Positions 14,298-49,349 of a stretch of 64,000 bases of DNA are shown in pieces. The DNA comes from Patescibacteria group bacterium. GTDB lineage: Bacteria; Patescibacteriota; Patescibacteriia; Patescibacteriales; JAQVLT01. The stretch is from contig JAQVLT010000006.1 in the NCBI GenBank assembly GCA_028704015.1, positions 10,102-74,101 of the forward strand, written 5' to 3'. The translations under genes were made by a program, and so were the position numbers. How positions within the stretch are numbered: the stretch's first letter is position 1; each line of letters begins with the position of its first letter. The notes beneath the pieces were generated by a model. It saw only the letters and a program-made list of their open reading frames with translations, was not told the origin of the DNA and ran no database searches.

Positions 14298-14693
14298 TTA
14301 AATATTTTTCTTAATCTTCTCCGCTATCTCCGCCATTTCTTCTTTGCTTAAATTTTTAACCGCTTTCAAATCAATAGCTCCGCCATGGTCGTCGTTCGGC
14401 AAGCGCGGCACAAGCCAAACATGCGCGTGCGCCACTTCCTCGCCAAAAACCATCGAAACAACATAGTCAGTATTAAATGCTTGGCGGATCGCATTTGCCA
14501 CTTTACCGACCGCTTCATAATACGCGCCGATATTTTCATGATCCCAAACCCAACGATAATGTTTCTTGGGAATTACCAAAGTGTGCCCGGGATTAAGCGG
14601 ACGAATATCCAAAAACGCCAAAAAATTTTCATCTTCATAAACTTTATAACACGGAATTTCTCCAGCTATGATTTTACAAAAAATACAATCCAT
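14298..14693 (-). CDS. HIT-family nucleotide hydrolase
   Basis: Histidine triad HAHVWLVP, and GHTLVIPKKH. Confidence 0.85.
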   Translation of the reverse strand: MDCIFCKIIAGEIPCYKVYEDENFLAFLDIRPLNPGHTLVIPKKHYRWVWDHENIGAYYEAVGKVANAIRQAFNTDYVVSMVFGEEVAHAHVWLVPRLPNDDHGGAIDLKAVKNLSKEEMAEIAEKIKKNI

Positions 14694-27672: not shown

Positions 27673-27820
27673 GCAAAATGGCCTTAAAAATCTAAAAATC
27701 TAAAAATCTAAAAAATTTTAGCTAACATTAAATAAAATATAAACTAAAAAATATTAGTAAATTTGACAAAAAAATCTCTCCGCCGATTTATACACAGCCG
27801 ATCTAACATAATAAAATGTA

Positions 27821-27955
27821 ATTGTTAATTGTTAATTGTTAATTGTTAATTGTTAATTGTTAATTGTTAATTGTTAATTGTTAATTGTTAATTGTTAATT
27901 GTTAATTGTTAATTGTTAATTGTTAATTGTTAATTGTTAATTGTTCTCTTACCAC
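27821..27955. repeat. tandem octamer AATTGTTA x about 17
   Basis: Perfect head-to-tail repeats read directly. They overlap the last codons and the stop of the Mur-ligase gene (..LTINN*). Confidence 0.95.
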
Positions 27956-33104: not shown

Positions 33105-33335
33105 ATGAATACTAAACCTTACTACAAATACAAAGATTTTTCTCTTTTTCACGGCAACTGCCTTGATATTTTAGCTAAAATTCCAGAAAATTCGGTTGAT
33201 ATGATCTTCGCCGATCCACCCTACCTACTCTCAAATGGCGGTTTTACCTGTCATGCTGGTCAAATGGTTAGCGTAAATAAAGGCCAGTGGGATGTAAGCA
33301 ACGGCCTAAAGAAAGATTTTGAATTTCATCTATGA
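33105..33335 (+). pseudogene. 5' fragment of a DpnA-like (beta-class, DPPY) N6-adenine DNA methyltransferase
   Basis: 76 aa. TKPYYKYKDF...SVDMIFADPPYLLSNGGF...VSVNKGQWD closely parallels the N-terminus of M2.DpnII (DpnA) as I recall it. It stops after about 25 percent of the expected length, and its TGA overlaps the next ATG. Confidence 0.7.
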
Positions 33336-34099
33336 AAATAATTTTTAATACAGCTCTTGCAAATAAATATACTAGCTTATCTCAAAAAGCCAGAGTTTTA
33401 ACTGAAACATGGGTTGACAATGAAATATTTTGTCCGAGTTGTGGGACAAATATTGAAAATTATGAAAATAATCGTCCAGTAGCTGATTTTTATTGCCCAA
33501 ATTGCAAAGAGGAATATGAATTAAAAAGCAAAAAAGATGGTTTGTCTAAAAAAATTGTTGATGGAGCTTATAAAACAATGCTTGAGAGATTAAAAAGCAA
33601 TAATAATCCGAACTTTTTTTTCTTAAATTACAATCCGATAAAATATGAGGTTTTAAACTTCTTGGTTATCCCAAAACATTTTTTTGTCCCTGATATCATC
33701 GAGAGAAGAAAACCATTATCAGAAAACGCTAGACGAGCTGGCTGGATAGGTTGTAATATCTTGCTTCAAGCTATTCCGCAAAGCGGAAAAATATTTTATA
33801 TAAAAAATGGAAATATTGAGAGCAAAGAGGATGTCTTAAAAAATTGGCAAAAAACTTTATTTTTAAGAGACTCAGACAAAGCTGAATTAAAAGGCTGGAT
33901 TTTAGATATAATGAGTTGTATTGATAAATTGAATAAAATAGAATTCTCTCTCGATGAAATTTATAATTTTGAAAACATTTTAAGCAAAAAACATCCGGAA
34001 AATAGACACATCAAAGATAAAATAAGGCAGCAACTACAATTTCTGAGAGACAAGGGGTATTTGAAATTTTTAGACAGAGGAAAATATAAATTAGTTTAA
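33332..34099 (+). CDS. DpnI-like methyl-directed (type IIM) restriction endonuclease
   Basis: 255 aa, collinear with remembered DpnI. SQKARVLTETWV, CPSC...NNRPVADFYCPNC zinc ribbon, EYELKSKK (D-EXK), NNPNFFFL, ARRAGWIGCNI, and the C-terminal wH IRQQLQFLRDKGYL..GRGKYKL. Confidence 0.8.
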   Translation: MKIIFNTALANKYTSLSQKARVLTETWVDNEIFCPSCGTNIENYENNRPVADFYCPNCKEEYELKSKKDGLSKKIVDGAYKTMLERLKSNNNPNFFFLNYNPIKYEVLNFLVIPKHFFVPDIIERRKPLSENARRAGWIGCNILLQAIPQSGKIFYIKNGNIESKEDVLKNWQKTLFLRDSDKAELKGWILDIMSCIDKLNKIEFSLDEIYNFENILSKKHPENRHIKDKIRQQLQFLRDKGYLKFLDRGKYKLV

Positions 34100-34301: not shown

Positions 34302-35144
34302 ATGAAATATTCTATGGAAACTAATCATATTGCTATTTTTAAAGGCAAATCAATTAGAAAAACTATTTTTCATAACGAGTGGTGGTTTTCGGTAATTGAC
34401 GTTGTCGAAGCTCTAACCGGTACGGGCAGACCTAGAAAATATTGGAATGATTTAAAGAAAAAGCTACTAAGCGAAGGATTTTTTGAAGTGTCCGAAAAAA
34501 TCGGACAGTTTAAATTAATGGCTTCAGACGGCAAAATAAGAGAAACTGACTGCGCCGATACCGAGACAATGTTTCGTATTATTCAATCTATTCCATCACC
34601 AAACGCCGAACCATTTAAGCGCTGGCTAGCTAAAGTTGGTTACGAAAGAACCCAAGAAATTGAGAATCCTGAGCTGGGAATTAAAAGAACAAAGACTCTT
34701 TACAAACTTAAAGGATATTCTGAGGACTGGATTGAAAAGCGCATGCGTGGTATTACTATACGTGAAGAATGGACCGATGAATGGAAAAAACGAGGCGTTA
34801 AGGAAAATATCGAGTTTGCTATCTTAACCGCCGAAATATCAAAAGCAACTTTCGGCATGACACCAAGCCAATACAAAAAATTTAAAGGCTTAAAACGAGA
34901 AAATTTGCGAGACCACATGGACGACCTTGAATTAATTTTTTCTATGCTCGGCGAAGCTTCAACTACAAAGATTACTAGAAGCAAAAATGCAAATGGTTTT
35001 ATCGAGAATAAAACTGCCGCCCAGAAAGGCGGAAAAATCGCGGGTGATGCCAGGCGAAAACTTGAGGTTGAATCCGGCGACAAGGTTATTACTAGAAAAA
35101 ATTATTTAATAGGCGCTCAAAATCTTAAAAAACTAAAAAAATAA
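34302..35144 (+). CDS. Bro-N domain protein (antirepressor/DinD-like)
   Basis: 280 aa with the N-terminus IAIFKGKSIRKTIFHNEWWFSVIDVVEAL, typical of Bro-N. Confidence 0.65.
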   Translation: MKYSMETNHIAIFKGKSIRKTIFHNEWWFSVIDVVEALTGTGRPRKYWNDLKKKLLSEGFFEVSEKIGQFKLMASDGKIRETDCADTETMFRIIQSIPSPNAEPFKRWLAKVGYERTQEIENPELGIKRTKTLYKLKGYSEDWIEKRMRGITIREEWTDEWKKRGVKENIEFAILTAEISKATFGMTPSQYKKFKGLKRENLRDHMDDLELIFSMLGEASTTKITRSKNANGFIENKTAAQKGGKIAGDARRKLEVESGDKVITRKNYLIGAQNLKKLKK

Positions 35145-36232: not shown

Positions 36233-36376
36233 AGCTGAAATATATATTTTTCTTTTGCCCTGCGGGGCAACTCTTAAAAAGAATTCAATTTTTGTTTTTT
36301 TATTAATTAGAAAGGGGTAATAAGTGTTTTCTTCGCTACGCTACAAAAACGATTTATTAATTAATCCAAAAAATAT

Positions 36377-38548
36377 ATGAAGAAACAATTAACAATTCTA
36401 CTAATTCTAACTTTTATTTTAGGGTTAGTGCCTTTCAATTTTTCAGAGGCGATTACTCAAAATCAAATTAGTGCCGAGGTTCAAATTGTTTGCCCGGACA
36501 ACTACGGAAATTGGTATAGCGGTTCGGGAACAATCATTGATCCTAAAGGAATTATTTTGACAAATAAGCACGTGGTATCCGACCAATATGGCGGAATTAT
36601 AAAAACCTGCTTTATTGGCTTTACGGAATCCATAAGCCAAGAACCAAATTTTGGTACTGAAACAAACCCAAATTTGGCAGAGGTAAAGTATTATACGACT
36701 GCAAATGATATGGATGCGGCTATCTTGTATCTCAATAATCTAACAAATAAAAGCTACGCTTATGTTGATATATGGAATTCCAACTCAAACGCTTTGCAAT
36801 TCGGCCACAAAATTGAAGCTATTGGTTTTCCCGGTATTGGCGGCTCGACAATAACTTATACTTCTGGCGATTTTAGTGGTTTTGGTAGTACGTCAGACGG
36901 AACACAAAATTACCTAAAGGCCACAACTCCACTCGAACATGGCAACTCTGGTGGTGCGGCATATAATCCAACAGGGCAATTTATCGGCATTCCAACAATG
37001 GTGGTTGCTGGCACTTTAAATTCTTTAAGTTATATCTTATCCGTCAATAGTATTAAAAGTTGGTTGTCTGGGATTTTAGGAAATAATTATCAACAAGAGG
37101 TTATCGAGCAAAAACCAATCGTAGAAAAACCAAAAGTCAGCGTGCAGAACGATATCACGCCGCCCGACATTAGTAAGTATAAACCAATTGCTACATGGAA
37201 TACGTTTATTTATTATGATTTATATAATAAAAATAATGAAACAATAAAAATGGGTCAATCAATAGATAATAAAATTATTCAAACTGGCATTTCTAACAAA
37301 ATTTCCTTATACACAAGCTACTCAGGAGATAAGACTTGGAATAAAACTATGGGTTATGACGTGGTTGAAAGTGAAAGCGGACTTTACAGTGTTTATTATA
37401 AATTCTCAAATAGTTTATCAGGATTAAACGATAAACCTTATGAAGAACAGGTGTTAAAATTAGATCTTGGCAGAACTGCAATTACTCCAATAATTGAATT
37501 ACCCGATAAAGAAGGCAGTTATTATTTTTCAATTAAATTTAAAGATAACGCAGGGAATGTTTCAAATGAATACATTTTAACGTATACATATTTAAAAGAG
37601 CATTATAAAGAATTAAAAACTTTGTATTTTTATTCTGATAAAAATTATAAAAATCTAATTGGTAGTTACGACATGAACTTTCTCTTTGATGGTTTTGATT
37701 ATTTGCGATGTATCACAAAATATAATACTGTCTATGTTCGATGGAAATATGATGATGACGATCAATTTCCTGGTTATGTAGCGAGAATCTTCCCTGACGA
37801 TATGTACGCGCTCAACCCTTCGGATACTATCAATAATAAAAACCTATCTTTAATAACAAATAATAAAATTCCCGTATATAATATAAATAAGTCAACAAAA
37901 GACGATCATGTATCCGATCTAAAAATATGCATGGATAAAAACGATACTCTGTGCAATTTAAGTGGCCAGGTAACATCGCTTTTGCTAAAACCAGTTGCAA
38001 ATAAGGACCTTTTTTTGGAAGGCAAAAATACTGTTGTAAAATTTCATTACAATTCAAATTTTGATCAAGGGTTTATGTGTGGATATCCTGATATAGAAAA
38101 TGAAAGTAAGCGCAATGCCATAGGAGAACCAAATTATTATATTCTAACTCAAGGTAATACTAATGCATCTAATGATTTATCGGAAAAGTTAAGCGGCCGC
38201 ATATTATTGCAAGTTGAAGCTCATGGTGAAGCTTATTATGTATATCCTAAAGACGGCAAAAGATACTATATGGCCAACGGTAATGAAGCATACAGAATAA
38301 TGAGATATTTAGGTGTTGGTATAACCAACAACGATTTGAATAAAATCAAAAATGATAAAAATTTCGCTAAAAAACACAGCGGAAAAATATTTTTGCAGGT
38401 TGAATCTCGTGGCGAAGCCTATTATATAGACTTTAACGGCAACGCCCATTATCTAAAGGATGGCGCCGCTGCATATACCGCCATGAGAGAATTAGGGCTT
38501 GGGATTACTAATAATAATTTAAATAAAATTCCAGAAGGAAGATTGTGA
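36377..38548 (+). CDS. secreted trypsin-like (S1/S1C-type) serine peptidase with large C-terminal extension and two terminal repeats
   Basis: 723 aa. Signal peptide or TM, TNKHV (His), DMDAAIL (Asp), GNSGGAAY (Ser). Two about 55-aa C-terminal repeats (LQVEaHGEAYY...GITNNdLNKI). Confidence 0.7.
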   Translation: MKKQLTILLILTFILGLVPFNFSEAITQNQISAEVQIVCPDNYGNWYSGSGTIIDPKGIILTNKHVVSDQYGGIIKTCFIGFTESISQEPNFGTETNPNLAEVKYYTTANDMDAAILYLNNLTNKSYAYVDIWNSNSNALQFGHKIEAIGFPGIGGSTITYTSGDFSGFGSTSDGTQNYLKATTPLEHGNSGGAAYNPTGQFIGIPTMVVAGTLNSLSYILSVNSIKSWLSGILGNNYQQEVIEQKPIVEKPKVSVQNDITPPDISKYKPIATWNTFIYYDLYNKNNETIKMGQSIDNKIIQTGISNKISLYTSYSGDKTWNKTMGYDVVESESGLYSVYYKFSNSLSGLNDKPYEEQVLKLDLGRTAITPIIELPDKEGSYYFSIKFKDNAGNVSNEYILTYTYLKEHYKELKTLYFYSDKNYKNLIGSYDMNFLFDGFDYLRCITKYNTVYVRWKYDDDDQFPGYVARIFPDDMYALNPSDTINNKNLSLITNNKIPVYNINKSTKDDHVSDLKICMDKNDTLCNLSGQVTSLLLKPVANKDLFLEGKNTVVKFHYNSNFDQGFMCGYPDIENESKRNAIGEPNYYILTQGNTNASNDLSEKLSGRILLQVEAHGEAYYVYPKDGKRYYMANGNEAYRIMRYLGVGITNNDLNKIKNDKNFAKKHSGKIFLQVESRGEAYYIDFNGNAHYLKDGAAAYTAMRELGLGITNNNLNKIPEGRL

Positions 38549-38605
38549 TAGCAAAATAGAAACGATAAATATAAATTTTAAAAAATTAGCCTTAAACAAA
38601 AAACA

Positions 38606-39811
38606 ATGATTAGTTTTGAAGTTAAAAATAATTTTCTTATACTTATCTACAATGCAGAGAGCGAAAACAATGAATGGGTTTTTAATAAAATAAAAGAGTC
38701 TGGTAAAGTTACACTCAGACAAACTTTTACTTTCACCGAGGAAGATTTACATAACATTAATCTAAAATCAGTAGATGAAAATGATTATGAAAAACCAATA
38801 AAATTTTCACTTGCGAAATTAGCAGATGGCTATTTTAAAATTGAAAAAAGAATATTACTAATAGATTATTTTGTATTTATATATAAAGACGTAAAAATAT
38901 CATTAAATTTTTTTATGTCAACAAAAAACATCTCAATATTTAAAATAATAAATAAACTAACAAGCGAAGATGTTTACATTGGGGGTAATAGCCCTGATGC
39001 CATACCCAAAAAAGTTTTTTTTGAACTTATTGAAAATTTTCCCAATAATTATGAGGTAGCTAAATACGTTAACGCACGTATTAGCTCCATTTTAAGAGAC
39101 TATTTTGACTCAACAATCGATAGCGAAAAAGAATACAATCAATACATGAATAAAAAAATAAGTCATAGGGGAAAAAATTTATCAATCCTATTTGTGGATA
39201 ATGAACTAAATAAATATAAAATCATTTTAGATAAACTCAGGGAGATGCTAAAAGATGAAGATAAATATAACGAAAAACAATGGCAAGAAGAAATCATACA
39301 AATAATATTATTTATATTTCCCAAATATATTAGAGTTTTTAACGAAGCTCCTGTAAGGGACACATACAACAACAAAACAAGACTTATTGATTACTTATTA
39401 ATTGATTCAAATGGAAATACTGATATTATTGAAATAAAAAAACCCTTTAGTCATTGTATTGTAACAAAAACCGTATACAGAGATAACTACATCCCCTTAA
39501 GAGAATTATCTGGTACCGTTATGCAAATCGAAAAATATATTTTCTATCTGAATAAATGGGGAAAAAAGGGTGAAAATAAATTAACAAATAAATATAAAAA
39601 CGAGCTTCCAAACAAATTTCAAATAAAAATTACAAACCCTGGCGGTATTATAATTATGGGTAGAGAAGATAAACTATCAACAGCTCAAAAACATGACTTT
39701 GAAGTAATAAAAAGAAAATATAAAAATATTATTGATATTATAACTTATGATGATTTACTGAAAAGATTGCAATTTATTATAGATCGATTAGAAAATTTAT
39801 CCAAAAAATAA
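38606..39811 (+). CDS. Shedu-like (DUF4263) PD-(D/E)xK nuclease
   Basis: 401 aa. C-terminal LIDYLLIDSNGNTDIIEIKKP (D...ExK), QIEKY, PGGIIIMGR, ITYDDLL, as in SduA-family proteins from memory. Confidence 0.6.
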   Translation: MISFEVKNNFLILIYNAESENNEWVFNKIKESGKVTLRQTFTFTEEDLHNINLKSVDENDYEKPIKFSLAKLADGYFKIEKRILLIDYFVFIYKDVKISLNFFMSTKNISIFKIINKLTSEDVYIGGNSPDAIPKKVFFELIENFPNNYEVAKYVNARISSILRDYFDSTIDSEKEYNQYMNKKISHRGKNLSILFVDNELNKYKIILDKLREMLKDEDKYNEKQWQEEIIQIILFIFPKYIRVFNEAPVRDTYNNKTRLIDYLLIDSNGNTDIIEIKKPFSHCIVTKTVYRDNYIPLRELSGTVMQIEKYIFYLNKWGKKGENKLTNKYKNELPNKFQIKITNPGGIIIMGREDKLSTAQKHDFEVIKRKYKNIIDIITYDDLLKRLQFIIDRLENLSKK

Positions 39812-39830
39812 TTAATTAAAATGCTATAAT

Positions 39831-39896
39831 GAGTTTTAGATTATGGGCATTCACCCCTAACCCCTCTGCCCAAAATCTAAAACGAAAAAAACAAAA
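39831..39896 (+). repeat. conserved hairpin with C-rich loop (TTTTAGATTaTGGGCA-TTCACCCCTAACCCCTC-TGCCCAAAATCTAAAA), copy 1
   Basis: A near-identical copy lies at 47763-47825. Both sit after the last ORF of a cassette. Confidence 0.85.
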
Positions 39897-39954
39897 CTGA
39901 ATTCTTTTTGCGAGTAATCCCAATAGCTATCGGGATTAAAGAAAAATATATACA

Positions 39955-40054
39955 TCAGCTAACACGGCATATCCGGTTGCGGCTTTTATACAAAAGCCTA
40001 CACCCACATTTGCCTCCGCTACGCTACGGCAAACATCAGATATGCCGAAACGTT
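39955..40054 (+). other. attC-like site 4
   Basis: TCAGCTAAC-AC-GGCATATCCGG ... CATCAGATATGCC-GAAAC-GTT. Its R'' is the reverse complement of GTTAGCTGA at 36230. Confidence 0.7.
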
Positions 40055-40228
40055 CCGCCGAAATCGCTCGCTTACGCTCGCTCCTTTTCGGCGGAACGGC
40101 TTCGGAATCCTTCCTCGTCCCGCTCAGTCGCTCGCAAGCTCGCGACATCGCGGAACTCGGAATACGCGAAATTGCCTTTCGTCCCGAAGCGTCGGGACTC
40201 CGGCAACTTCGCTTATTCCGAAGCCGTT
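40052..40228 (+). repeat. 177-bp element copy E5 (short variant)
   Basis: Identical to E4 by eye. Confidence 0.95.
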
Positions 40229-40420
40229 ATACGCAATTCAAAAAATATTTTTCTTTTAATAAGGAATTTTGACAGGCTTTTTAAAAAGGGGAATAAATTT
40301 GTTTTTTTATTTATTAGAAAGGGGTAATATTGTGTTTTTTCTGCTTTTGGAGGCGCAGAAAAAACGATTTACTTACAAGGGGAAAACGGGTACTATACAA
40401 TTACTTATTAGGAATAAACT

Positions 40421-41614
40421 ATGGCAAATAAAAATCTTACAAATGCTAAAAAGGCAAAGAATGATGAATTTTATACTCAATTTTCAGATATTCAAAAAGA
40501 AGTTGAGTCCTATCTTGAATATGACGCTAACACTTTCAAAGGGAAAGTAGTTTATAGCAACTGCGACGACCCATTTGAGAGTAATTTCTTCCGCTATTTT
40601 GTCCTAAATTTTAAAAGACTAGGGATGAAAAGACTTATTGCAACTAGTTACAAACCGTCACCAGTTGCGAATACTCAATTAGAGCTTTTTGGAAATGATA
40701 CTACTCTTAAACCCATGAAAGGACGCCCGAAAATAACTGCTAATAAATTCATTATTAACGAAGTTGGTGATGTGAATGGCGACGGTTCTTTTACGCTAGA
40801 AGATATTGCCCTACAACTTAAAGCAAACAAAAACAACGAATGGTCTCCGCTTGAGGGTGATGGTGACTTCAGGAGTGATGAGTGTGTCGAGTTACTCAAG
40901 CAATCTGATATTGTCGTCACTAATCCTCCGTTTAGTTTATTTCGTGAATATATAACTCAACTCTTTGAACATAAAAAACAATTTCTAATCATCGGAAATC
41001 TCAATGCAATAACTTACAAGGAAATTTTTCCAATGATCAAAGCGAATAAAGTTTGTTTGGGAAATAATGCAAGAGTTAATGGTGGTGCAATGTTTTATGA
41101 GATTCCAGAAGCTGTTGCAAACTTGGATCAAGTTCGTGAAATCAAAACGGATGAAAAAGGTAAAAAGGTATATATAACAAGAGTCCAGGGAGTTCGTTGG
41201 TTTACAAACCTTGACCACGGACGACTACACCAACCTATTCCCCTAATGAGTCATGCCGACGTCTTAAAGTTCAGTACAAATAAGCCATTCGTACACTATG
41301 ACAATTATGATGCTATTGAAATTGCTTTAGTAAAAAATATTCCTAAAGACTACAACGGCGTTATGGGCGTACCAATCAGTTTTTTAGATAAGTATTCACC
41401 CGATCAATTTGAGATTTTAGGGACAAGCGATAACGGTCTCGTAGATGACAAGTACAAAACATCGCTAGGTTTAAAAAAACAATTTGTAGAAGACTACTAC
41501 AAAGCTGGGGGCACTGGTGCCTACAAAGAAGGTAATCCAACAGCGGGTTTTTACGAAGACGGCATCGCAAAAATGGCTTACAAGCGAATTTTTATAAAAC
41601 ACAAGAAAAACTAA
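40421..41614 (+). CDS. N6-adenine DNA methyltransferase, EcoRI-methylase-like family
   Basis: 397 aa with N-terminal NDEFYTQ and catalytic VVTNPPFSLF (NPPF). Confidence 0.75.
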   Translation: MANKNLTNAKKAKNDEFYTQFSDIQKEVESYLEYDANTFKGKVVYSNCDDPFESNFFRYFVLNFKRLGMKRLIATSYKPSPVANTQLELFGNDTTLKPMKGRPKITANKFIINEVGDVNGDGSFTLEDIALQLKANKNNEWSPLEGDGDFRSDECVELLKQSDIVVTNPPFSLFREYITQLFEHKKQFLIIGNLNAITYKEIFPMIKANKVCLGNNARVNGGAMFYEIPEAVANLDQVREIKTDEKGKKVYITRVQGVRWFTNLDHGRLHQPIPLMSHADVLKFSTNKPFVHYDNYDAIEIALVKNIPKDYNGVMGVPISFLDKYSPDQFEILGTSDNGLVDDKYKTSLGLKKQFVEDYYKAGGTGAYKEGNPTAGFYEDGIAKMAYKRIFIKHKKN

Positions 41615-41615
41615 C

Positions 41616-42878
41616 ATGAAAAAAGTTAAAGTTTCAATTCAAGATGAAAACACGTTGGTTTTATTAGAAGATGGATCAAGGGGTGATTTAATTGACCTCA
41701 GGTCCATACATGAAGCTGATATTGATAAAACAACCATTACAAATGTGGTTAACTCCATAAAACGTGATGTTTTTAATGCTGAACTCCAAAAAGAAAAAAA
41801 TGTCATTAAGCGTGAAAATGAATTAAAGCTTGAACTCAAGGAAAAAGAGTTCAAAAGCCGCGCAAAAGAAGATTTAATGGAGAAAGACAAGGAAATTATT
41901 GCACTTAATTCAGAACTAAAAAATATCGCTGAGAAAACAGAATCAGCTATAAAACTTAAAGATATTCAAGAGAAGCAAAAGATAGAGGAGGAATACAGAG
42001 AAAAGTTGAACGAGAAAGAAATTGAGATAAATAACATCAAGCACGAGAAAGAATTAAGCGAGGAAAAACTAAAAGAACAAATCAAGTCAACAGAGACAGC
42101 TCTTGTTTCACTAAAGGAAATGCGCACCAAGATGAGTACTAAGATGATTGGTGAGTCTCTTGAAGTACACTGCGAAAATGAATTTAATCGTATTCGTCAT
42201 ATAGCATTTCCTAATGCAAAGTTTGGTAAAGATAATGCCGTATCAGAATCTGGTTCAAAGGGAGACTACGTTTATCGCGAAGTTGATGAAGATGGCAATG
42301 AGATTTTGTCCATTATGTTTGAAATGAAGAACGAGGATGACATTACCGCTACAAAGAAAAAGAATAAAGATTTCTTTAAGGAACTAGATAAAGATCGTCA
42401 GGAGAAAAAATGTGAATATGCTGTCTTGGTAAGTCTCCTTGAAAAAGATAATGAATATTATGATGACATTGTTCCTGTTTATGAATATAAACTTATGTAT
42501 GCTATCCGCCCCCAGCATTTCATTACTATCATTGGATTTCTACGACAAGCAAATATAAAATCACAGCACCTCAAGCGTGAAATTCACATACTTAACAATC
42601 AAAATGTTGACGTTTCAAACTTTGAAGCAAACATGAATGCATTTAAGGAGGCATTCTCAAGAAATTTCAGTTTGGCATCAACACAATTCTCTAACGCTAT
42701 TGCAGAGATAGATAAAACCATTGACCATTTAAATAAAGTCAAAGAAAATCTTCTAAAATCTGATAACAACCTACGACTTGCAAATAATAAGGCCACCGAC
42801 TTATCTATAAAGAAACTAACCTCCAATAGTCCAAGCGTAGCCAAAGCATTCGAAGAAATTAATAATGAAAATAAATAA
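41616..42878 (+). CDS. DUF2130 protein (coiled coil plus C-terminal PD-(D/E)xK-like module)
   Basis: 420 aa. [47 protein letters not shown] match the DUF2130 pattern from memory. Confidence 0.7.
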
Positions 42879-42880
42879 TT

Positions 42881-44044
42881 ATGAAAACCACACTAAAAAA
42901 TGACATCACGATAAAAGAAGTTTGCGATGGTTTTGTATATAATGAACTTGAAGGCAAAGGGCTGTTCGGTCTCTCGGGCAAACTAACTATTCAGCCAGAG
43001 TATCAGCGTAATTACATTTACGCTGACGGCAAATGTGACGTTGCTGTAATTGACTCAATTTTAAAAGGTTACCCAATAGGTTTAATTTATTTCAACCATG
43101 TTAGCACTGATAAATTTGAAGTGCTCGACGGACAGCAACGCATCACTAGTATTGGTCGGTTTGTGACAGGCAAGTTTGCCGTCAAAGATAAAAATGGACA
43201 TGAACAATATTACAGTGGCATGGCTACCAGTCAACGCGAGCAAATAATGAACGCTAAATTGTTAGTGTATTTGTGTAAAGGTGATGAGCTTGAGATTAAG
43301 GATTGGTTTAAAACTATCAATATCGCCGGAGTACCATTAACCGAACAAGAGATTCTCAATGCAGTATATTCTGGAACATTTGTTACTCGCGCTCGCGAAG
43401 AATTCAGTAATAGCCAAAATACCAACATTCAGAAATGGAGTACCTATATTGCAGGTGATATCAAACGCCAAGCATATTTAGAACGGGCTTTAGATTGGGT
43501 TTCTGGTGGAGAAATCGATAGCTACATGAGTAAACATCGGAACGATAAAAACATCACTGAACTGAAAAAGCATTTCGATACTGTCATTGACTGGGTTTCA
43601 ACCACCTTCACGGACGTTGAAAGTGAAATGAAGGGTCTTGAGTGGAACAGGCTTTACCAAACTTACCACAAGAAAAAATACAACCCAGCAATAGTTTCTG
43701 CTAAGGTTCAGAAACTCTATGCTGACGGCTTTGTAAAAAGTCGTAAAGGCATTTTTGAATATGTTTTAGGTGGAGAAGTAGAAACAAAACTGCTTGAAGT
43801 TCGAGTATTTGAAGACCCGACAAAACGTTCAGTGTATGAAGCTCAAACTTCCGCCGCAAAAAATAAAGGCATTTCAAATTGCTCGCATTGCGCGATTGGT
43901 CACGATGCGAACAAAACGAAAATTTGGGGTTTGAGCGATATGGATGCCGATCATGTTTCGGCTTGGAGCAAGGGCGGTGCAACAGATGTAAAAAATTGTG
44001 AGATGTTGTGTAAGACGCACAATCGAGCAAAGGGAAATCGTTAA
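42881..44044 (+). CDS. DUF262 (ParB/GmrS-like, DGQQR) plus C-terminal HNH endonuclease
   Basis: 387 aa. [19 protein letters not shown], and C-terminal [32 protein letters not shown]. Confidence 0.75.
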
Positions 44045-44145
44045 CCAAATAATTAAAATCAGTATGGAAAATGCTTAAAAAATAAATTGAGGATATAATG
44101 GAGAAAGTGAAATGTACATATATAATTTAGGCTAAAGACAGCAAT

Positions 44146-44173
44146 AAAAAACGCCTACCGGGGGCGTTTTTTG
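44146..44173 (+). terminator. intrinsic terminator
   Basis: AAAAAACGCC-TACCGGG-GGCGTTTTTTG. Confidence 0.75.
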
Positions 44174-44247
44174 TATTAATAGAGTTAAATACAGAAAGGT
44201 AAAGCATAAAAGAAAATGATAATTATTTGTTTTTGTGTCCCATTTTG

Positions 44248-44276
44248 TTGCGCTGGTGTCCCAAATATGCTAATAT
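44248..44276 (+). promoter_or_regulatory. promoter TTGCGC-17-TAATAT flanked and overlapped by a GTGTCCCA direct repeat
   Basis: tttGTGTCCCAttttgTTGCGCtgGTGTCCCAaatatgcTAATAT. It lies 40 nt upstream of the AAA ATPase gene. Confidence 0.5.
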
Positions 44277-44316
44277 ATTAAGTGTGGATAAAATAAATTC
44301 ATTTCATTTAAAATAA

Positions 44317-45363
44317 ATGTATATGCGCAAAAAAAACATTTTAAATTTAATTAAATATCATGCCGAAAAAAATGAGGCGGGTTTTAAAAATGAAGCCTAT
44401 GACATAGCAAGATATTTCGATTCTACTGGTGACTCTGAATTGGCTCAATATATTATGGCCTTACTGTCTGGCGCTAATACTTTTGTGCCGCAGGACAACG
44501 AATACAATCTTCCATTTTTTATGAAAGCAAATTTAGATAGTAGCAAATCCTTCCCACTTCCCACTCTTATAACAAACGATATAGTGGGCATTATAAATTC
44601 AATTGGACATAAGATTGGGGTTAACAAATTCTTATTTGAGGGTGATCCTGGAACAGGCAAAACTGAAACAGCAAAACAAATTGCTCGTATTCTTGAACGA
44701 GATTTATATGTGATAGATTTTGATAGTGTTATAGATAGCAAGCTTGGTCAAACGTCCAAAAACATTGCTTCCGTTTTTACAGAGTTACAAAGATTGCCTC
44801 ACCCAGAAAAAGTCATTATTTTATTTGACGAGATAGACGCAATAGCTTTAGATAGAATTAACTCTAACGATTTACGAGAAATGGGGAGAGTAACTTCTTC
44901 TGTTTTAAAAGGGTTGGATGGATTAAATGATGAAGTTGTTCTTATAGCCACCACTAATCTTTTTGGGCAATTCGATAAGGCTTTACTTAGAAGATTTGAT
45001 TCAATTATAAATTTTAATAGGTATAACAAAGAAGAATTGATTGAAGTCGCAGAATCTATGTTAAATGAGTTTTTAACAAAATTTAAATTTGCTAGTCGTA
45101 ATATGAGGCTTTTTAAAAAAATATTTTTAACATTAGACCATATTCCTTATCCTGGTGATTTGAAAAATATAATTAAAACCGCACTAGCATTTAGTGATCC
45201 AAATAATGAATATGATTACTTAAAAAAATTATATGAATCTATACAACCTAAAGACAAAAAGATAGATTTAAAAAAATTACAGTACAGCGGTTTTACGGTT
45301 AGAGAAATAGAAATATTAACAGGAGTTTCTAAAAGCCAAGTGTCGAGAGAACTAAATGTCTAA
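44317..45363 (+). CDS. AAA+ ATPase, IetA-like, with C-terminal HTH
   Basis: 348 aa. Walker A GDPGTGKTE, Walker B VIILFDEIDA, ATTN sensor. C-terminal FTVREIEILTGVSKSQVSREL. Confidence 0.75.
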   Translation: MYMRKKNILNLIKYHAEKNEAGFKNEAYDIARYFDSTGDSELAQYIMALLSGANTFVPQDNEYNLPFFMKANLDSSKSFPLPTLITNDIVGIINSIGHKIGVNKFLFEGDPGTGKTETAKQIARILERDLYVIDFDSVIDSKLGQTSKNIASVFTELQRLPHPEKVIILFDEIDAIALDRINSNDLREMGRVTSSVLKGLDGLNDEVVLIATTNLFGQFDKALLRRFDSIINFNRYNKEELIEVAESMLNEFLTKFKFASRNMRLFKKIFLTLDHIPYPGDLKNIIKTALAFSDPNNEYDYLKKLYESIQPKDKKIDLKKLQYSGFTVREIEILTGVSKSQVSRELNV

Positions 45364-47611
45364 AATTATGAACAATATTCTTCAATTAAAAGGTGTCCTT
45401 CAAGAACGTTCGCATATTGGCCGGCCAAGCTCTCGTAATGTTCCAAAAAATTCCCCAACTATAAATTCTGATAAACTAAAAAATTTGGTTAGACAGCTCC
45501 AGGATCTTGCTGATTATTGGACTAGGCAAAATATTATTAAGGGTTGCTTAGTTGATGTTTGTTATATCGACGTCATCGCTAAGAGTAATAGAATTAGTGG
45601 GTTATTATCAAGTAGTGGCTCTGTAAATGACTCTGTTGTTGGTGCAAGATTTGCTAATGAAGAGACAAGAAAACATGTGATTACGCATCATGTCAGCGAA
45701 AAAGTAATTCAGGATACAATTAAAAAATTAGAAGGCTGTATAAAGCTATTAGATGAAATATTTAGCGGAAAGATAACCCATGATTTGATTGGTGGTTTAA
45801 ATGATAAAAATATAAAGTATGAAAAATATGGGGTAACAAAAACAAATTTTCGAAATATAATTGTAGATTCACATTATGTAGAAGGTTTTACGGTTCCAAA
45901 TAACAGTGCAAACACAAATAATAGATCAATAATTACAATATATAAAACTAATGTTGGTTTAACTGAATTAATGAAAGATATCGGTATAAACGTTCAGCCT
46001 GATAAAATACTAAGTGAAACCACCTTGCTTTTATACCCAGATGAAATCAAACTCTTGTCAGACAAGGCACCATATCTAATTGCAATGTCGACAGAAGATA
46101 TATCTAAACTAAGTTTTAAAGATATTGTTGATGGCGCAAACAGCGAATCTGCTATAAAAACAATAGGATCACCCAAAGACGAACCTATTGTTGGCGTAAT
46201 AGATACTTTATTTGATGAATCAGTGTATTTTTCTGAATGGGTGGATTTTAGAAAAATGATCAATAAAGAAATACCTACGGAATCCAAAGATTATGTTCAC
46301 GGAACATCGGTAAGTTCAATTATTGTTGATGGGCCAACTATTCACCCAGAGCTAGATGATGGGTGTGGCAGATTCAGAGTTAGGCATTTTGGTGTAGCCG
46401 CACAAGGACAGTATAGCGCCTTTTCTATTATGAAAGCCATAAAAGAGATAGTTACTTCAAATCCAGATATAAAGGTATGGAATCTGTCTTTGGGATCCGA
46501 CAGAGAAATTAATCCCAATTTTATATCACCAGAAGCAGCTATACTAGATGAAATTCAATATGAAAATAATGTTATTTTTGTAATAGCAGGCACTAATAAA
46601 CGCGACGATGAAAGTAGGGTAGAAAAAATGATTGGCTCGCCCGCCGATTCAATTAATGCTATAGTTGTAAATTCGGTAAATAGTAAGGGATCTCCAGCAA
46701 CCTATTCCAGAAAGGGGTTAGTTTTATCATTTTTTAATAAACCAGACGTTAGTAGTTATGGAGGTGATAATGGCGATTATCTTAGGGTGTGTACACCAAC
46801 TGGCGAAGGTTTGTGCAGTGGTACTTCATACGCAGCTCCATGGGTAACTCGAAAAATTGCTTACTTGATAGAAGTACTCGGACTTAATCGAGAAGTCGCA
46901 AAAGCGCTAATTGTAGACGCTGCTGCTGGGTGGAATAGTATTGGCAATAATACTAAATTAGCACCCTTTGTGGGCCATGGGGTAGTACCTAAAAATATAG
47001 AAAACATTATAAAAGCGGATAATGATGAAATAAAGTTTATCATAAGTGGTATCTCTGAGAAATGGGATACATATGCTTATAATTTACCTGTTCCAACACA
47101 TAATAATAAACACCCTTTTGTTGCCAAAGCTACCTTATGTTATTTTCCCGGCTGCTCTATTAATCAAGGAGTTGATTACACAAACACAGAACTAGATATA
47201 TATTTTGGTAGAATTAAAGACAAGGGTATTAAGTCTATAAACAAGAATTGTCAAAATAATGATGACGGCGAAAAACATTATATATACGAAGGTAATGCCA
47301 GGGAATTTTACCGAAAATGGGACAACACTAAACATATAAATGAAATTCTTACAGATAGAGTTCATGCACGCGACGTTTACGATAAAGGCATGTGGGGACT
47401 AAGTATTAAATCAAAAGAAAGATTGAGTAGGCGTAGCAATGGTATTAATTTTGGTTTAGTTGTGACATTAAAGGAGATTTATGGAGTTAATAGAATTAAT
47501 GATTTTGTACATCAATGCGAATTACTTGGCTGGTTGGTAAATCGTGTAGATATAGATAATAAAATTGATATCTATAACAAGGCTCAGGAAATAGTTACAT
47601 TTGATAAGTAA
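45356..47611 (+). CDS. S8 subtilisin-like serine peptidase, IetS-like
   Basis: 751 aa with triad contexts VGVIDTLFD, HGTSVSSII, GTSYAAPWV. It overlaps the ATPase gene by 8 nt. Confidence 0.75.
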   Translation: MSKIMNNILQLKGVLQERSHIGRPSSRNVPKNSPTINSDKLKNLVRQLQDLADYWTRQNIIKGCLVDVCYIDVIAKSNRISGLLSSSGSVNDSVVGARFANEETRKHVITHHVSEKVIQDTIKKLEGCIKLLDEIFSGKITHDLIGGLNDKNIKYEKYGVTKTNFRNIIVDSHYVEGFTVPNNSANTNNRSIITIYKTNVGLTELMKDIGINVQPDKILSETTLLLYPDEIKLLSDKAPYLIAMSTEDISKLSFKDIVDGANSESAIKTIGSPKDEPIVGVIDTLFDESVYFSEWVDFRKMINKEIPTESKDYVHGTSVSSIIVDGPTIHPELDDGCGRFRVRHFGVAAQGQYSAFSIMKAIKEIVTSNPDIKVWNLSLGSDREINPNFISPEAAILDEIQYENNVIFVIAGTNKRDDESRVEKMIGSPADSINAIVVNSVNSKGSPATYSRKGLVLSFFNKPDVSSYGGDNGDYLRVCTPTGEGLCSGTSYAAPWVTRKIAYLIEVLGLNREVAKALIVDAAAGWNSIGNNTKLAPFVGHGVVPKNIENIIKADNDEIKFIISGISEKWDTYAYNLPVPTHNNKHPFVAKATLCYFPGCSINQGVDYTNTELDIYFGRIKDKGIKSINKNCQNNDDGEKHYIYEGNAREFYRKWDNTKHINEILTDRVHARDVYDKGMWGLSIKSKERLSRRSNGINFGLVVTLKEIYGVNRINDFVHQCELLGWLVNRVDIDNKIDIYNKAQEIVTFDK

Positions 47612-47762
47612 CCGTTAGTTTACAATTCCATCGGAGCTGTGTAAAAACAAAAGTACGTTTAATAGTATCACCAAAAAGTTTTAGGGATCAAACCCAAATA
47701 AAAGACAAAAATTCCCTCCCCTTAAACCCCTTCCTTTTTGCCTTTTATTTGAAAAGAATAAG

Positions 47763-47825
47763 GAGTTTTAGATTTTGGGCATTCACCCCTAACCCCTCTG
47801 CCCAAAATCCAAAACAAAAAACAAA
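47763..47825 (+). repeat. conserved hairpin with C-rich loop, copy 2
   Basis: Matches 39831-39896. It is preceded by a second AT-stem/C-rich-loop hairpin at about 47697-47755. Confidence 0.85.
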
Positions 47826-47879
47826 TTTATTATTAAGTAGCCTATCAAAATATTATTTTATTTAAAATATTTTTGAACA

Positions 47880-48005
47880 GCGTATAACACGGCATAATCT
47901 GGTTCCAGAATTTTTCATTAACAGTTAATAATAAGGAGTAAAAAATTCTTACACCCATATTTGCCTCCGCTACGCTACGGCAAACATCAGATATGCCGAT
48001 ACGTT
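47880..48005 (+). other. attC-like site 5
   Basis: GCGTATAAC-AC-GGCATAATCTGG ... CATCAGATATGCC-GATAC-GTT. Its R'' is the reverse complement of GTTATACGC at 40226. Confidence 0.7.
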
Positions 48006-48181
48006 CCGCCGAAATCGCTCGCTTACGCTCGCTCCTTTTCGGCGGAACGGCTTCGGAATCCTTCCTCGTCCCGCTCAGTCGCTCGCTCACGCTCGCGACA
48101 TCGCGGAACTCGGAATACGCGAAATTGCCTTTCGTCCCGAAGCGTCGGGACTCCGGCAACTTCGCTTATCCCGAAGCCGTT
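48003..48181 (+). repeat. 179-bp element copy E6
   Basis: As E1 with one substitution (TTATCCCGAAG). Confidence 0.95.
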
Positions 48182-48219
48182 AGACGAAATTTTTCAAAGC
48201 TACTAACAAAAATGAATAT

Positions 48220-48531
48220 ATGAAAAAAATTATTATCATTTCAACAATTATTATTCTGATTCTAGTAACTATTACTGGATTTATTTATTTTTATATGAAC
48301 CAAGGGTCTGATATTTCCGGGTTTCCAGATTATTATAAAAATTTAGCCAAAGAATGTGAATTAAAGCTAAGTCATGATTGTTGCATGTCTTCAGTAAACA
48401 TAATGACTAATGGAAATTATCAATTAGCTCCTGGCAAAACATTAGCAGAAAGCGGCTGCCCGGAAGGATATCAACCAAATATGTTAAAATGTATTGATAG
48501 CTTCAGATGGTGTGAGCCAATAAAACGGTAG
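48220..48531 (+). CDS. small secreted/membrane-anchored Cys-rich protein (cassette C6)
   Basis: 103 aa with an N-terminal TM helix and 7 Cys in the ectodomain. Confidence 0.55.
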   Translation: MKKIIIISTIIILILVTITGFIYFYMNQGSDISGFPDYYKNLAKECELKLSHDCCMSSVNIMTNGNYQLAPGKTLAESGCPEGYQPNMLKCIDSFRWCEPIKR

Positions 48532-48543
48532 TTTTGAAAAACA

Positions 48544-48595
48544 TCACTTAACACGCAATAAGCGACATTAAAACAATCGCTTATTGCGGGACGTT
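48544..48595 (+). other. attC-like site 6 (compact, no 179-bp element)
   Basis: TCACTTAAC-AC-GCAATAAGCGA-CATTAAAACAA-TCGCTTATTGC-GGGAC-GTT. Confidence 0.75.
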
Positions 48596-48660
48596 ATCGG
48601 AATTGCTCTTTTACAAAATACTTTTTAGGGGCTACATAACACGAAAAAAAGGAGGACAAG

Positions 48661-48903
48661 ATGGCCATCCAAGTCACAAGTTGGCAAGATCTAGCCGAGA
48701 AAACGTTCTTTAGCGGCTTAACTGCCCAAGAAGTTAAGGAAATGGGACTAACTTACAAACCAGGGAAAAGCTTTTCAACCCTGGCACAGACAATCAATAC
48801 TACAGGACCTCGTCCACCTTACAGTTACTGGGCAGTATTAGCCGGAAGGGAGGATGTTCTTCGAGAACATCTCGAAGGCAATCTTACAAACGACCGTGAT
48901 TAA
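48661..48903 (+). CDS. hypothetical protein (cassette C7)
   Basis: 80 aa with a strong SD, AAAGGAGGacaagATG. Confidence 0.55.
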   Translation: MAIQVTSWQDLAEKTFFSGLTAQEVKEMGLTYKPGKSFSTLAQTINTTGPRPPYSYWAVLAGREDVLREHLEGNLTNDRD

Positions 48904-48999
48904 CAGGGCTCCTTGGGGACATAAGCATGTCCCCGCCCCTAAAAAGCATTTTGTATTTTGGCTAATCGCCAAAAGGCTATCGCCTAAAAGAGCAATACA

Positions 49000-49121
49000 T
49001 CCGATAACACGGCATATCCAGCTCGGACTTTTCCGAAAGTCCTCACGCAAATTTTTGTTTCTCTTTACTTTATAATAAATAAAGGTGGAGAAACAAAATC
49101 TTCGGATGATGCCGAAACGTT
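49000..49121 (+). other. attC-like site 7
   Basis: TCCGATAAC-AC-GGCATATCC ... GGATGATGCC-GAAAC-GTT. Its R'' is the reverse complement of GTTATCGGA at 48593. Confidence 0.7.
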
Positions 49122-49315
49122 CCGCCGAAATCGCTCGCTTACGCCTGCCTACCGGCAGGCAGGCTCGCTCTTTTTCGGCGGAACGGCTTCGGAATTCTTC
49201 CTCGTCCCGCTCAGTCGCTCGCAAGCTCGCGACATCGCGTAACTCGGAATAAGCGAAATTGCCTTTCGTCCCGAAGCGTCGGGACTCCGGCAACTTCGCT
49301 TATTCCGAAGCCGTT
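49119..49315 (+). repeat. 197-bp element copy E7 (divergent; carries a nested GC-rich palindrome)
   Basis: Short variant with several substitutions. CCTGCCTACCGGCAGGCAGG (49143-49164) is inserted in the first hairpin loop. Confidence 0.95.
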
Positions 49316-49349
49316 GTACGAAATATCATTCACCTTTAATTCGTAAAAT

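Follow-up and report, generated by a model that had tools for sequence, protein, structure and literature searches.

In IetAS systems, IetA acts as the antitoxin and IetS as the toxin (PMC13069673, PMC8562856), and both roles have been demonstrated for an Escherichia coli ietHAS homolog. On the Agrobacterium plasmid pTiC58, following the account of Yamamoto et al. (2009, J Bacteriol 191:4656) given in PMC13069673, an ATPase antitoxin and an S8 protease toxin stabilise the plasmid. The Bacillus cereus IetAS operates by abortive infection and is triggered by yosG of SPbeta (10.1101/2022.08.27.505566). [quoted passage not shown] The mechanism of IetAS was still called unknown in April 2026 (PMC13069673).

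The locus described here lies in a window of 64 kb (the whole stretch of DNA analysed) from a Patescibacteria genome and includes the following coding features:

44323-45363, + strand: ietA, encoding an AAA+ ATPase of 346 aa, with a second in-frame ATG at 44317
44641-44664 and 44821-44838, + strand: Walker A and Walker B motifs of ietA, respectively
45268-45354, + strand: three-helix HTH at the C-terminus of IetA (residues 316-344, with SKSQVSRE as the recognition helix)
45368-47611, + strand: ietS, encoding a cytoplasmic S8 (subtilisin-like) protease of 747 aa, or 751 aa from the ATG at 45356
46202, 46298, 46595 and 46826, + strand: codons of the IetS catalytic residues D283, H315, N414 and S491 (751-aa numbering)

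A sequence-only reading of the window had likened this pair to IetA and IetS, and the PADLOC models, taken as equivalent to the DefenseFinder Gao_Iet models, bore out the likeness: IetA matched PDLC02196 (IetA; 8e-45, aligning residues 6-346 with positions 5-368 of the 374-position profile) and IetS matched PDLC02197 (IetS; 1.5e-61). The Pfam families AAA (1.7e-25) and Peptidase_S8 (1.1e-31) were recovered for IetA and IetS, respectively. Judged by these profiles, the ATPase and protease are a genuine IetAS-type toxin-antitoxin/anti-phage pair of a known family. Both proteins scored far under the NCBIfam equivalog cut-offs (IteA: 5e-35 and 121 bits against a cut-off of 510, with an alignment confined to the AAA core; IteS: 145 bits against 900 bits), and therefore represent a divergent subfamily. 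They share their two-gene architecture and profiles with the IetAS that defends against phage (Gao et al. 2020; homologs from B. cereus m1293 and from E. coli ECOR52); in HTH-bearing relatives, the IteA model reaches into the C-terminal HTH region. The Walker A (GDPGTGKT) and Walker B (ILFDEID) motifs, intact as that reading had it, were invariant among homologs, as were the four catalytic residues of IetS. The genes are adjacent on the + strand with ietA first, an order shared by the homologous loci for which an IetS was identified.

The same reading had let the two genes overlap by 8 nt; the open reading frames are 44317-45363 (ATPase) and 45356-47611 (protease). Because homologs begin with MRKKN (IetA) and MNNILQ (IetS), the conserved starts are the ATG at 44323 for ietA and the ATG at 45368 for ietS, which leave a gap of 4 nt; the overlap holds solely if the ATG at 45356 is used. 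AlphaFold2 (AF2) models searched with Foldseek place IetA in the classic-clade AAA+ fold. IetS comes out as pro-subtilase-like, extended at the N-terminus and with a beta domain at the C-terminus, and its N-terminal region of about 270 aa has no assigned function. In IetA of this clade, the pore-loop aromatic residue is swapped for a lysine (SKLG), so neutralisation of IetS by IetA may not use threading.

The M. mycoides proteins were 52% (A132) and 42% (T133) identical to IetA and IetS over their full length, with similar sizes (353 and 757 aa), the same gene order and a shared C-terminal HTH (NFTVREIEILKGLSKSSVALKV). TA132/133 differs in lying on a mycoplasma chromosome outside an integron cassette, with no adjacent restriction-modification (R-M) module reported, and its description mentions neither the HTH nor an operator (PMC8562856). 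The pTiC58 system shares the order of AAA+ ATPase then S8 protease, whereas its IetA (328 aa) aligned with the window protein in the AAA core alone (33% identity over residues 101-254), lacks the C-terminal HTH and the TGTCCC boxes described below, and retains the pore-loop aromatic (KFMG). By analogy with these homologs, IetS would be the toxin and IetA the antitoxin in the window as well.

The intergenic region upstream of ietA contains the following elements:

44146-44173, + strand: intrinsic terminator-like hairpin, AAAAAACGCC-TACCG-GGGCGTTTTTT, closing the upstream R-M module
44235-44242, + strand: putative operator box 1, GTGTCCCA, with core TGTCCC at 44236-44241, just 5' of the -35
44248-44253, + strand: -35 hexamer TTGCGC, between the boxes; TTGACA-like in most homologs
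44256-44263, + strand: putative operator box 2, GTGTCCCA, with core TGTCCC at 44257-44262, placed 21 bp from box 1 in the spacer between -35 and -10
44268-44276, + strand: extended -10 TGcTAATAT (TG at 44268-44269, TAATAT at 44271-44276), 17 nt from the -35

A terminator, a TTGCGC-17-TAATAT promoter and a twice-repeated octamer on either side of the -35 had all been claimed for this region, and each was found in place, the TG adding an extended -10 to the promoter. The hairpin and T-tract read AAAAAACGCCTACCGGGGGCGTTTTTTG and fold as a 13-bp stem, which is retained with G-U changes in three homologous loci (L001-L003). Transcription of ietA is predicted to start near 44282, leaving a 5' UTR of about 40 nt. 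The -35 of the window matches the consensus at 3 of 6 positions, and a generic promoter scan did not list the TTGCGC/TAATAT site; its yield of promoter-like sites in the region did not exceed that in shuffles. The arrangement TGTCCC-N15-TGTCCC occurs once in the 64-kb window against 0.04 expected; on the window alone the repeat is thus mildly unusual, and support for its reality comes from its conservation.

In homologous loci, the TGTCCC direct repeat, with starts 20-21 bp apart, lies around the -35 and before an extended -10, whose TGnTAnnAT motif is kept 5-9 nt past box 2. The earlier suggestion had hinged on such conservation upstream of homologs, which was observed in 76 of 77 assessable metagenome loci (those with enough upstream sequence present) and in 19 of 21 genome loci, where TGTCCC-N14/15-TGTCCC lies 57-87 nt upstream of ietA. 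In one of the other genome loci the repeat is displaced to 342 nt upstream of ietA (L012), and in another, cut by the contig end, a single box is visible (L005). The genome loci with the repeat come from at least six phyla, and homologs carrying it belong to Patescibacteria, Saccharibacteria, Bacillota, Bacteroidia, Actinomycetota, Campylobacterota and Mycoplasmatota; it was also present on two plasmids, one of Clostridium perfringens and one of Carnobacterium. The published natural promoter of TA132/133 contains TTTTTGTCC twice, 20 nt apart, and its layout matches that of the window (hairpin, two TGTCC boxes around the -35, extended -10). The repeat had a background rate of 0.05 per kb, which amounts to 0.02 expected for each upstream region. 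Overall, about 100 loci have the boxes on both sides of the -35; the boxes carry 1.7-2.0 bits per position compared to 0-1.1 in the flanks, and the surrounding intergenic DNA is unalignable. All these loci descend from one mobile operon; the conservation proves selection on the boxes and not which protein reads them. This conserved promoter repeat of ietAS appears undescribed, though it is conventional for toxin-antitoxin systems.

The boxes always stand at fixed distances from the -35 and -10, as would also be expected if they were promoter architecture or a host-factor site (UP-like or activator), with the HTH serving in tethering or foreign-DNA sensing. Such a sensing role is conceivable since the Bacillus IetAS is triggered by phage replication-associated functions (10.1101/2022.08.27.505566). 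However, the motif follows the operon across phyla with differing transcription machineries, CPR and Mycoplasma included, which argues for a cis-encoded cognate binder. In addition, many loci have a canonical TTGACA between the boxes, which means that the -35 is not formed by the boxes, and box 2 occupies the spacer, a classic repressor position. A purely promoter-based or host-factor origin of the boxes is therefore considered very unlikely.

A candidate for the cognate binder is the C-terminus of IetA itself, where FTVREIEILTGVSKSQVSREL is present. That the ATPase ends in an HTH, as proposed from the sequence, agrees with the AF2 model, in which helices span residues 316-321, 326-333 and 337-344, and with the near-invariance of this segment among homologs, beside a variable linker; Pfam HTH models matched it weakly (E 0.05-0.16). 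Relatives with another recognition helix have other repeats: AGCCTGACCA twice in Sphingopyxis (0/2000 shuffles), TTTTTCATTA twice in Macrococcus (25/2000 shuffles) and TTTGGTGG three times in Vibrio, at 21 and 43 nt, the 20-21 bp spacing being retained among these differing repeats. No repeat was found in M. hyorhinis, where the HTH is degenerate and IetS is retained, nor in L. salivarius, where the HTH is truncated, and the canonical IetA of the Ti plasmid and of Klebsiella lack the HTH. The Plesiomonas and phage phiT5282H relatives have the HTH without an obvious direct repeat. The relatives behind this co-variation are few and distant, and for one of them the DNA is AT-rich and so prone to repeats (p about 0.01). 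Taken with the conservation of both elements, it suggests that the C-terminal DNA-binding tail of IetA probably reads the TGTCCC boxes.

The boxes could alternatively be a real operator bound by an IetA-IetS complex or by IetS itself, with repression set by the toxin:antitoxin ratio (conditional cooperativity) or by the N-terminal extension of IetS. In type II toxin-antitoxin systems the toxin often acts as a co-repressor, IetS has its long N-terminal region without assigned function, and IetS accompanies the boxes in nearly all loci. Against this, M. hyorhinis retains IetS yet lost both the HTH and the boxes, the pro-subtilase-like model of IetS has no recognisable DNA-binding fold, and the repeat sequence shifts along with the recognition helix of IetA. 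Binding through IetS thus seems unlikely.

The predicted layout resembles that of type II toxin-antitoxin modules, with the antitoxin gene first, a DNA-binding domain, an operator overlapping the promoter and tightly coupled genes. It differs in that the antitoxin would be a 346-aa AAA+ ATPase where type II antitoxins are small and labile, the putative operator consists of direct repeats instead of a palindrome, and neutralisation by IetA, unlike that by a type II antitoxin, probably needs ATPase activity (PMC13069673).

The ietAS operon shares an integron cassette with an R-M-like module, delimited as follows:

39956-40232, + strand: the preceding cassette's attC, with R'' CAGCTAAC and R' GTTATAC
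40421-44044, + strand: co-cassette R-M-like module of three genes (PADLOC/Pfam)
40421-41614, + strand: EcoRI-type adenine methyltransferase (MTase)
41616-42878, + strand: DUF2130 gene
42881-44044, + strand: GmrSD_N-HNH nuclease
47880-48185, + strand: attC of the R-M/IetAS cassette, R'' GCGTATAAC at 47880-47888 and R' GTTAGAC at 48179-48185

Two PADLOC models matched the module, MTase_II with 1.2e-98 and REase_II with 2.4e-81. The cassette begins at the crossover G|TT (40226/40227), and the starting sequence GTTATACGC at 40226 is the exact reverse complement of R'' GCGTATAAC at 47880 (9/9). Such a match between a cassette's start and its own R'' marks one cassette, here with both the R-M module and IetAS inside it. 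This complementarity holds for five consecutive cassettes of the array (four besides this one), and in L001 and L003. The interval 44044-44317 had been said to be free of an attC-like site, and nothing found there contradicts this: 44045-44316 folds no better than shuffles (z = -0.5), and no similarity to the attC module of the array, whose attC sites are about 300 nt long, was detected within 40300-47750. A weak attC candidate, CGTTAAC...GTTAAAT (44039-44190), was rejected as it breaks the R'/R'' rule for both flanking cassettes. The cassette indeed holds two systems and is very large, as described earlier, while its extent, 40227-48179, is 7,953 bp and not 7.8 kb.

A short Xer-like tyrosine recombinase of 272 aa is encoded at 31079-31897 on the - strand, scoring 216 bits against TIGR02249 (cut-off 265; match in two stretches) and 218.9 bits against NF040815 (cut-off 220). 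In L001 and L003, homologs of it with 56-58% identity are neighbours of the same cassette. Vibrio superintegrons carry toxin-antitoxin cassettes. Compared to known integron defence and toxin-antitoxin cassettes, the present one has a Patescibacteria host, about 8 kb and two systems, and compared to known integrons, the array has an integrase under the IntI cut-off and attC sites of the length given above. It is alike to the integron defence cassettes called BRiCs in being an attC-bounded defence with its own promoter, independent of Pc (10.1101/2024.07.02.601719).

The terminator and separate promoter split the two modules, most other loci carry IetAS without this R-M module, and DUF2130 is inserted in the window copy alone. 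The two-system cassette could hence be an accident, in which the loss of an internal attC joined two once separate cassettes and the R-M module and IetAS are functionally unlinked. However, the R'/R'' complementarity covers all 7,953 bp, and the nuclease-IetA-IetS block is contiguous in three other Patescibacteria genomes with 82-89% identity. In L001 and L003, the whole cassette is on the contig as a single cassette, first next to the integrase and bounded by different attC sites, with the MTase and nuclease contiguous with IetAS; in L002 the nuclease is the sole R-M gene visible upstream of IetAS, and an attC alone is seen because the contig end removes the cassette start. A non-random co-localisation of RM III and ietAS has also been reported in E. 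coli (10.1101/2022.08.21.504612). An accidental association seems rather unlikely; an ancient fusion of the two modules may have occurred and is compatible with the main explanation given below.

With a probability of roughly 70%, ietA and ietS make up a bicistronic operon of the HTH-bearing clade, expressed from its own promoter within an integron cassette and autorepressed through HTH-operator contact, in which the effector IetS is held by IetA and released on infection. Family membership, the conservation of the operator and HTH, and the cassette boundaries are the observed basis of this reading. IetS, with its intact catalytic tetrad, would be the toxin and effector, and IetA the neutralising AAA+ ATPase. 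Most likely, two HTHs of an IetA oligomer would bind the two TGTCCC boxes, which share one DNA face two helical turns apart. Since box 1 abuts the -35 and box 2 lies in the -35/-10 spacer, IetA sitting on them would keep RNA polymerase away and so repress ietAS, a negative autoregulation as in type II toxin-antitoxin modules. The upstream terminator would insulate ietAS from the R-M module, and the close gene spacing (4-nt gap or 8-nt overlap) would serve to couple the A:S ratio. If the B. cereus IetAS is a guide, infection would break the grip of IetA on IetS, and the freed protease would arrest or kill the cell. IetA as the binder of the boxes, repression as its effect, the trigger and the targets of the protease are inferences.

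A more elaborate version, which we regard as improbable, would make IetA a DNA-tethered AAA+ oligomer whose HTH-operator contact is part of sensing and not routine autoregulation and, separately, would turn the R-M module plus IetAS into a two-layer defence coupled by design. Phage-induced changes, such as transcription shut-off, replication intermediates or a yosG-like protein, would then displace or deplete IetA and so release IetS. Restriction would act first with abortive infection as back-up, the integron moving both as a unit; four Patescibacteria genomes have the two together in one integron cassette. For the autorepressed operon favoured here, the conserved boxes and the HTH provide a concrete experimental handle on the IetAS system.

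The ATPase and the protease of the ietA-ietS operon matched the PADLOC profiles for IetA (PDLC02196; 8e-45, nearly end to end) and IetS (PDLC02197; 1.5e-61), which upholds the family assignment proposed from the sequence alone, and Pfam placed an AAA domain in the former and a Peptidase_S8 domain in the latter. The NCBIfam models IteA and IteS also matched them with scores far under their equivalog cut-offs, so that the pair belongs to a divergent subfamily and is not closely orthologous to the anti-phage pair that was curated. Walker A and Walker B were invariant in homologs, as were D283, H315, N414 and S491 of the protease, and the pore-loop aromatic residue was replaced in this IetA clade (SKLG). 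The AlphaFold2 model of IetA (pLDDT 78.5) resembled in Foldseek classic-clade AAA+ machines (proteasomal Rpt subunits, Rix7, Vps4, Msp1, Trip13), and that of IetS (pLDDT 82) resembled pro-subtilases with a C-terminal beta domain (pro-Tk-SP, KP-43, furin/kexin). A sequence search for solved structures returned none for members of either family.

The elements of the operon, all located on the window sequence where the sequence-only reading had placed them, were the following.

44146-44173: GC-stem hairpin followed by a T-tract (read from the sequence)
44235-44242 and 44256-44263: two copies of GTGTCCCA, the boxes (read from the sequence)
44248-44253: -35 element TTGCGC, 17 nt before the -10
44271-44276: -10 element TAATAT, with TG at 44268-44269
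45363: end of the AAA+ ORF
47611: end of the S8 protease ORF

Homolog comparison gave the N-termini MRKKN for IetA and MNNILQ for IetS, and the conserved start codons are therefore ATG 44323 (ietA) and ATG 45368 (ietS). With these starts, 4 nt separate the two genes; the earlier claim of an 8-nt overlap requires a non-conserved ATG at 45356. The proposed promoter, TTGCGC-17-TAATAT, is present as placed and its -10 is extended by the TG, but its -35 is weak, which accounts for its absence from the list of a generic promoter/terminator scan. The proposed terminator was likewise unlisted, and the scan gave no surplus of sites over shuffled sequences, so single-sequence promoter calls are uninformative here. 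Within the window alone, the two-box pattern occurred once against 0.04 expected, a count that is suggestive only. A second direct repeat, TAAAATAAAT in two copies 20 nt apart (44289-44318), lies in the predicted ietA 5' UTR; it was reached in 7/2000 shuffles and is conserved only in part in three other Patescibacteria genomes (L001-L003). As this repeat, and not the operator boxes, is the longest in the 200-nt ietA upstream region, the case for the operator must rest on comparative data. No Rfam family was matched in the entire window, so the ietA upstream repeats are not a known RNA.

The comparison covered 21 genome loci with IetA homologs (63-96% identity) from Patescibacteria, Saccharibacteria, Bacillota, Bacteroidia, Actinomycetota and Campylobacterota. 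Searching both strands of 320 kb for TGTCCC-N13-17-TGTCCC, with at most one mismatch in total, yielded 23 matches, 21 of them upstream of ietA on the coding strand. The distance to the ietA ATG was 57-87 nt in 20 matches (window included) and 342 nt in locus L012; only one box is visible in locus L005, whose upstream region is truncated by the contig end. The boxes held 1.7-2.0 bits of information per position, compared with 0-1.1 bits in the flanking intergenic DNA, and the homologs shared a layout with a TTGACA-like -35 between the boxes and TGnTAnnAT after box 2. The same box arrangement was found on one plasmid each of C. perfringens and Carnobacterium, and the published natural promoter of the Mycoplasma mycoides pair contains a hairpin followed by two copies of TTTTTGTCC 20 nt apart. 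Among metagenome loci with sufficient upstream sequence, 76/77 possessed the boxes, and the sole exception (L061) retained box 2; the relaxed-pattern background in the same loci was 0.05 per kb, or 0.02 expected per upstream region. The expectation that the repeat would be conserved upstream of homologs was thus borne out.

The last ~30 residues of IetA (LQxxGFTVREIEILTGVSKSQVSREL) are near-invariant and follow a variable linker. They form three short helices in the AlphaFold2 model, and the weak Pfam matches to this C-terminus are all to helix-turn-helix (HTH) families. The NCBIfam IteA model aligned through its C-terminal end in HTH-bearing proteins only; the HTH thus belongs to a broad anti-phage clade and is not peculiar to this locus. 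Co-variation of helix and repeat was examined in more distant IetA-like proteins of plasmids and phages.

Recognition helix of distant IetA-like proteins and repeats upstream of their genes
Sphingopyxis: helix SRQMVHRY; AGCCTGACCA twice, 20 nt apart (0/2000 shuffles)
Macrococcus: helix SISTLSRE; TTTTTCATTA twice, 20 nt apart (25/2000 shuffles)
Vibrio: helix SRPTVKKS; TTTGGTGG three times, at 21 and 43 nt
E. faecium: helix SKSSVQRY; TGTCCC retained, as an inverted pair
M. hyorhinis: degenerate HTH, IetS kept; no upstream repeat
L. salivarius: truncated HTH, without IetS; no upstream repeat
Ti plasmid and Klebsiella: without HTH; without TGTCCC boxes

Taken together, box conservation, the HTH fold and the co-variation of repeat and helix point to IetA as the protein most likely to read the boxes. 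With box 1 abutting the -35 and box 2 inside the spacer, repression of ietAS is the most likely predicted outcome of their occupancy, and the two-box operator is probably autoregulatory. This arrangement follows standard toxin-antitoxin logic. Two Ligilactobacillus salivarius plasmids (L027, L028) carried orphan IetA-like ATPases (48-50% identity) with a truncated HTH and no S8 partner, within operons of small hypothetical genes, one adjoining an IscB gene.

On sequence grounds, the window pair is an IetAS member of the HTH-bearing clade. Its IetA and IetS share 52% and 42% identity over the full length with A132/T133 of Mycoplasma mycoides capri, whose sequences and natural promoter are given in the supplement of PMC8562856, whereas the founding pair of the Agrobacterium Ti plasmid has only the AAA core in common with it. 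In the mycoplasma pair, the protease was confirmed experimentally as the toxin and the ATPase as the antitoxin, and losing only the A132 antitoxin was lethal in JCVI-syn2.0 (PMC8562856). Among other IetAS homologs, construction of an ietA mutant was unsuccessful, consistent with an antitoxin role of IetA (PMC13069673), and abortive infection triggered by SPbeta yosG was reported (10.1101/2022.08.27.505566). As of April 2026, how IetAS acts against phages was explicitly termed unknown (PMC13069673), and a literature search for IetAS with cryo-EM or mechanism found no such paper. Neither the IetAS HTH nor the two-box operator is mentioned in the searched literature, where this feature seems undescribed.

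The operon lies in an integron-like array (31079-53500) of what is apparently a Patescibacteria (CPR) genome; a literature search for integrons in Patescibacteria found nothing substantial. The array runs on the plus strand after a recombinase and is punctuated by ~300-nt repeats starting with ..TAAC and finishing with GCCGTTA... Its other features were as follows.

31079-31897, minus strand: Xer/IntI-like tyrosine recombinase, 272 aa, scoring slightly under the IntI and XerA cut-offs
33332-34099: DpnI-like methyl-directed restriction enzyme
34302-35144: Bro-N domain protein
36377-38548: secreted-looking trypsin-like protease, 723 aa
38606-39811: full-length Shedu SduA (PADLOC 2e-154)
41616-42878: DUF2130 gene, between an EcoRI-type MTase and a GmrSD_N-HNH nuclease
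48220-48531 and 48661-48903: two small ORFs, between attC 47880-48185 and attC 48995-49316

The DpnI-like enzyme and the Bro-N protein, at earlier positions, indicate an array rich in defence functions, and the cassette preceding that of IetAS (36233-39950) is another multi-gene defence cassette, with the trypsin-like protease and SduA as its two genes. At ~300 nt, the attC sites are unusually long; common to them is a GC-rich 3' module of ~190 nt, near-identical in seven copies (31987, 32810, 35325, 35993, 39989, 47940 and 49076). A generic attC scan for R''/R' and L''/L' complementarity was dropped, known sites not being separable from background, and the comparison was instead made between the start of each cassette and the R'' in that cassette's attC. 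This R'' was the reverse complement of the sequence following the G|TT crossover in each of five consecutive cassettes. The rule that R' matches the next cassette's R'' fails between attC 47880-48185 and attC 48995-49316, and an attC of a different type that escaped recognition may lie in 48185-48995. A long-stem hairpin of 64 nt (GAGTTTTAGATTxTGGGCA...TGCCCAAAATCxAAAAC; the two window copies 94% identical) separates the last gene from the attC in the SduA (39826-39889) and IetS (47758-47821) cassettes and also follows IetS in L002 (4283-4340) and L003 (11443-11479); it may be a terminator or a piece of an attC-proximal structure. Outside the array, a perfect tandem TAATTGT heptamer (~20 copies) occupies intergenic DNA at 27805-27950.

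For the IetAS cassette, GTTATACGC at 40226 pairs with the R'' GCGTATAAC at 47880, its reverse complement, which delimits 40227-48179 (7,953 bp) as one cassette holding the R-M module and IetAS, in line with the large two-system cassette first proposed. The interval 44045-44316 showed no significant structure in a folding test and no similarity to the attC module, so no attC separates the ATPase from the upstream genes, as had been claimed; a weak core-site pair inside it was rejected as an internal attC because it departs from the complementarity rule. A contiguous nuclease-IetA-IetS block was found in L001-L003 at 82-89% identity. In L001 and L003, the MTase, GmrSD/HNH, IetA and IetS genes form the first cassette beside a homologous recombinase (56-58% identity), with an attI and a different attC at its edges, the latter again obeying the complementarity rule; in L002, the cassette start is cut by the contig end, and a partial nuclease, IetAS and the downstream attC are present. 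The DUF2130 gene is absent from the otherwise collinear cassettes of L001 and L003 and is thus a recent, window-specific insertion into the R-M module. The suggested search for IetAS as a cassette of its own found none among the loci inspected for it.

Loci L004 and L020 have only the operon in common with the window. Away from this cassette, IetAS was accompanied only by its own promoter and operator, in defence-island-like contexts. In L004 (Saccharibacteria), a UvrD-helicase/PD-(D/E)XK nuclease gene (11313-14393) lies 27 nt after ietS, recalling the helicase-containing ietHAS variant (PMC13069673), although the ietHAS helicase is SNF2-type; in L019 (Trichococcus), a TIR-domain gene (4821-5597) follows ietS.

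Overall, the finding of the sequence-only reading is real and its interpretation largely right, and none of these results overturns current ideas. The HTH-bearing IetAS clade defined here is large, has a sharply conserved two-box operator usable as a sequence signature for its annotation, and takes in the experimentally validated mycoplasma toxin-antitoxin pair. The operator and HTH offer a handle on the control that an AAA+ ATPase antitoxin exerts over its own operon and over the protease paired with it. These genomic comparisons show that an 8-kb two-system cassette (R-M and IetAS) moves between integron-like arrays in Patescibacteria, so that the picture of integrons as stores of defence systems now takes in the CPR.
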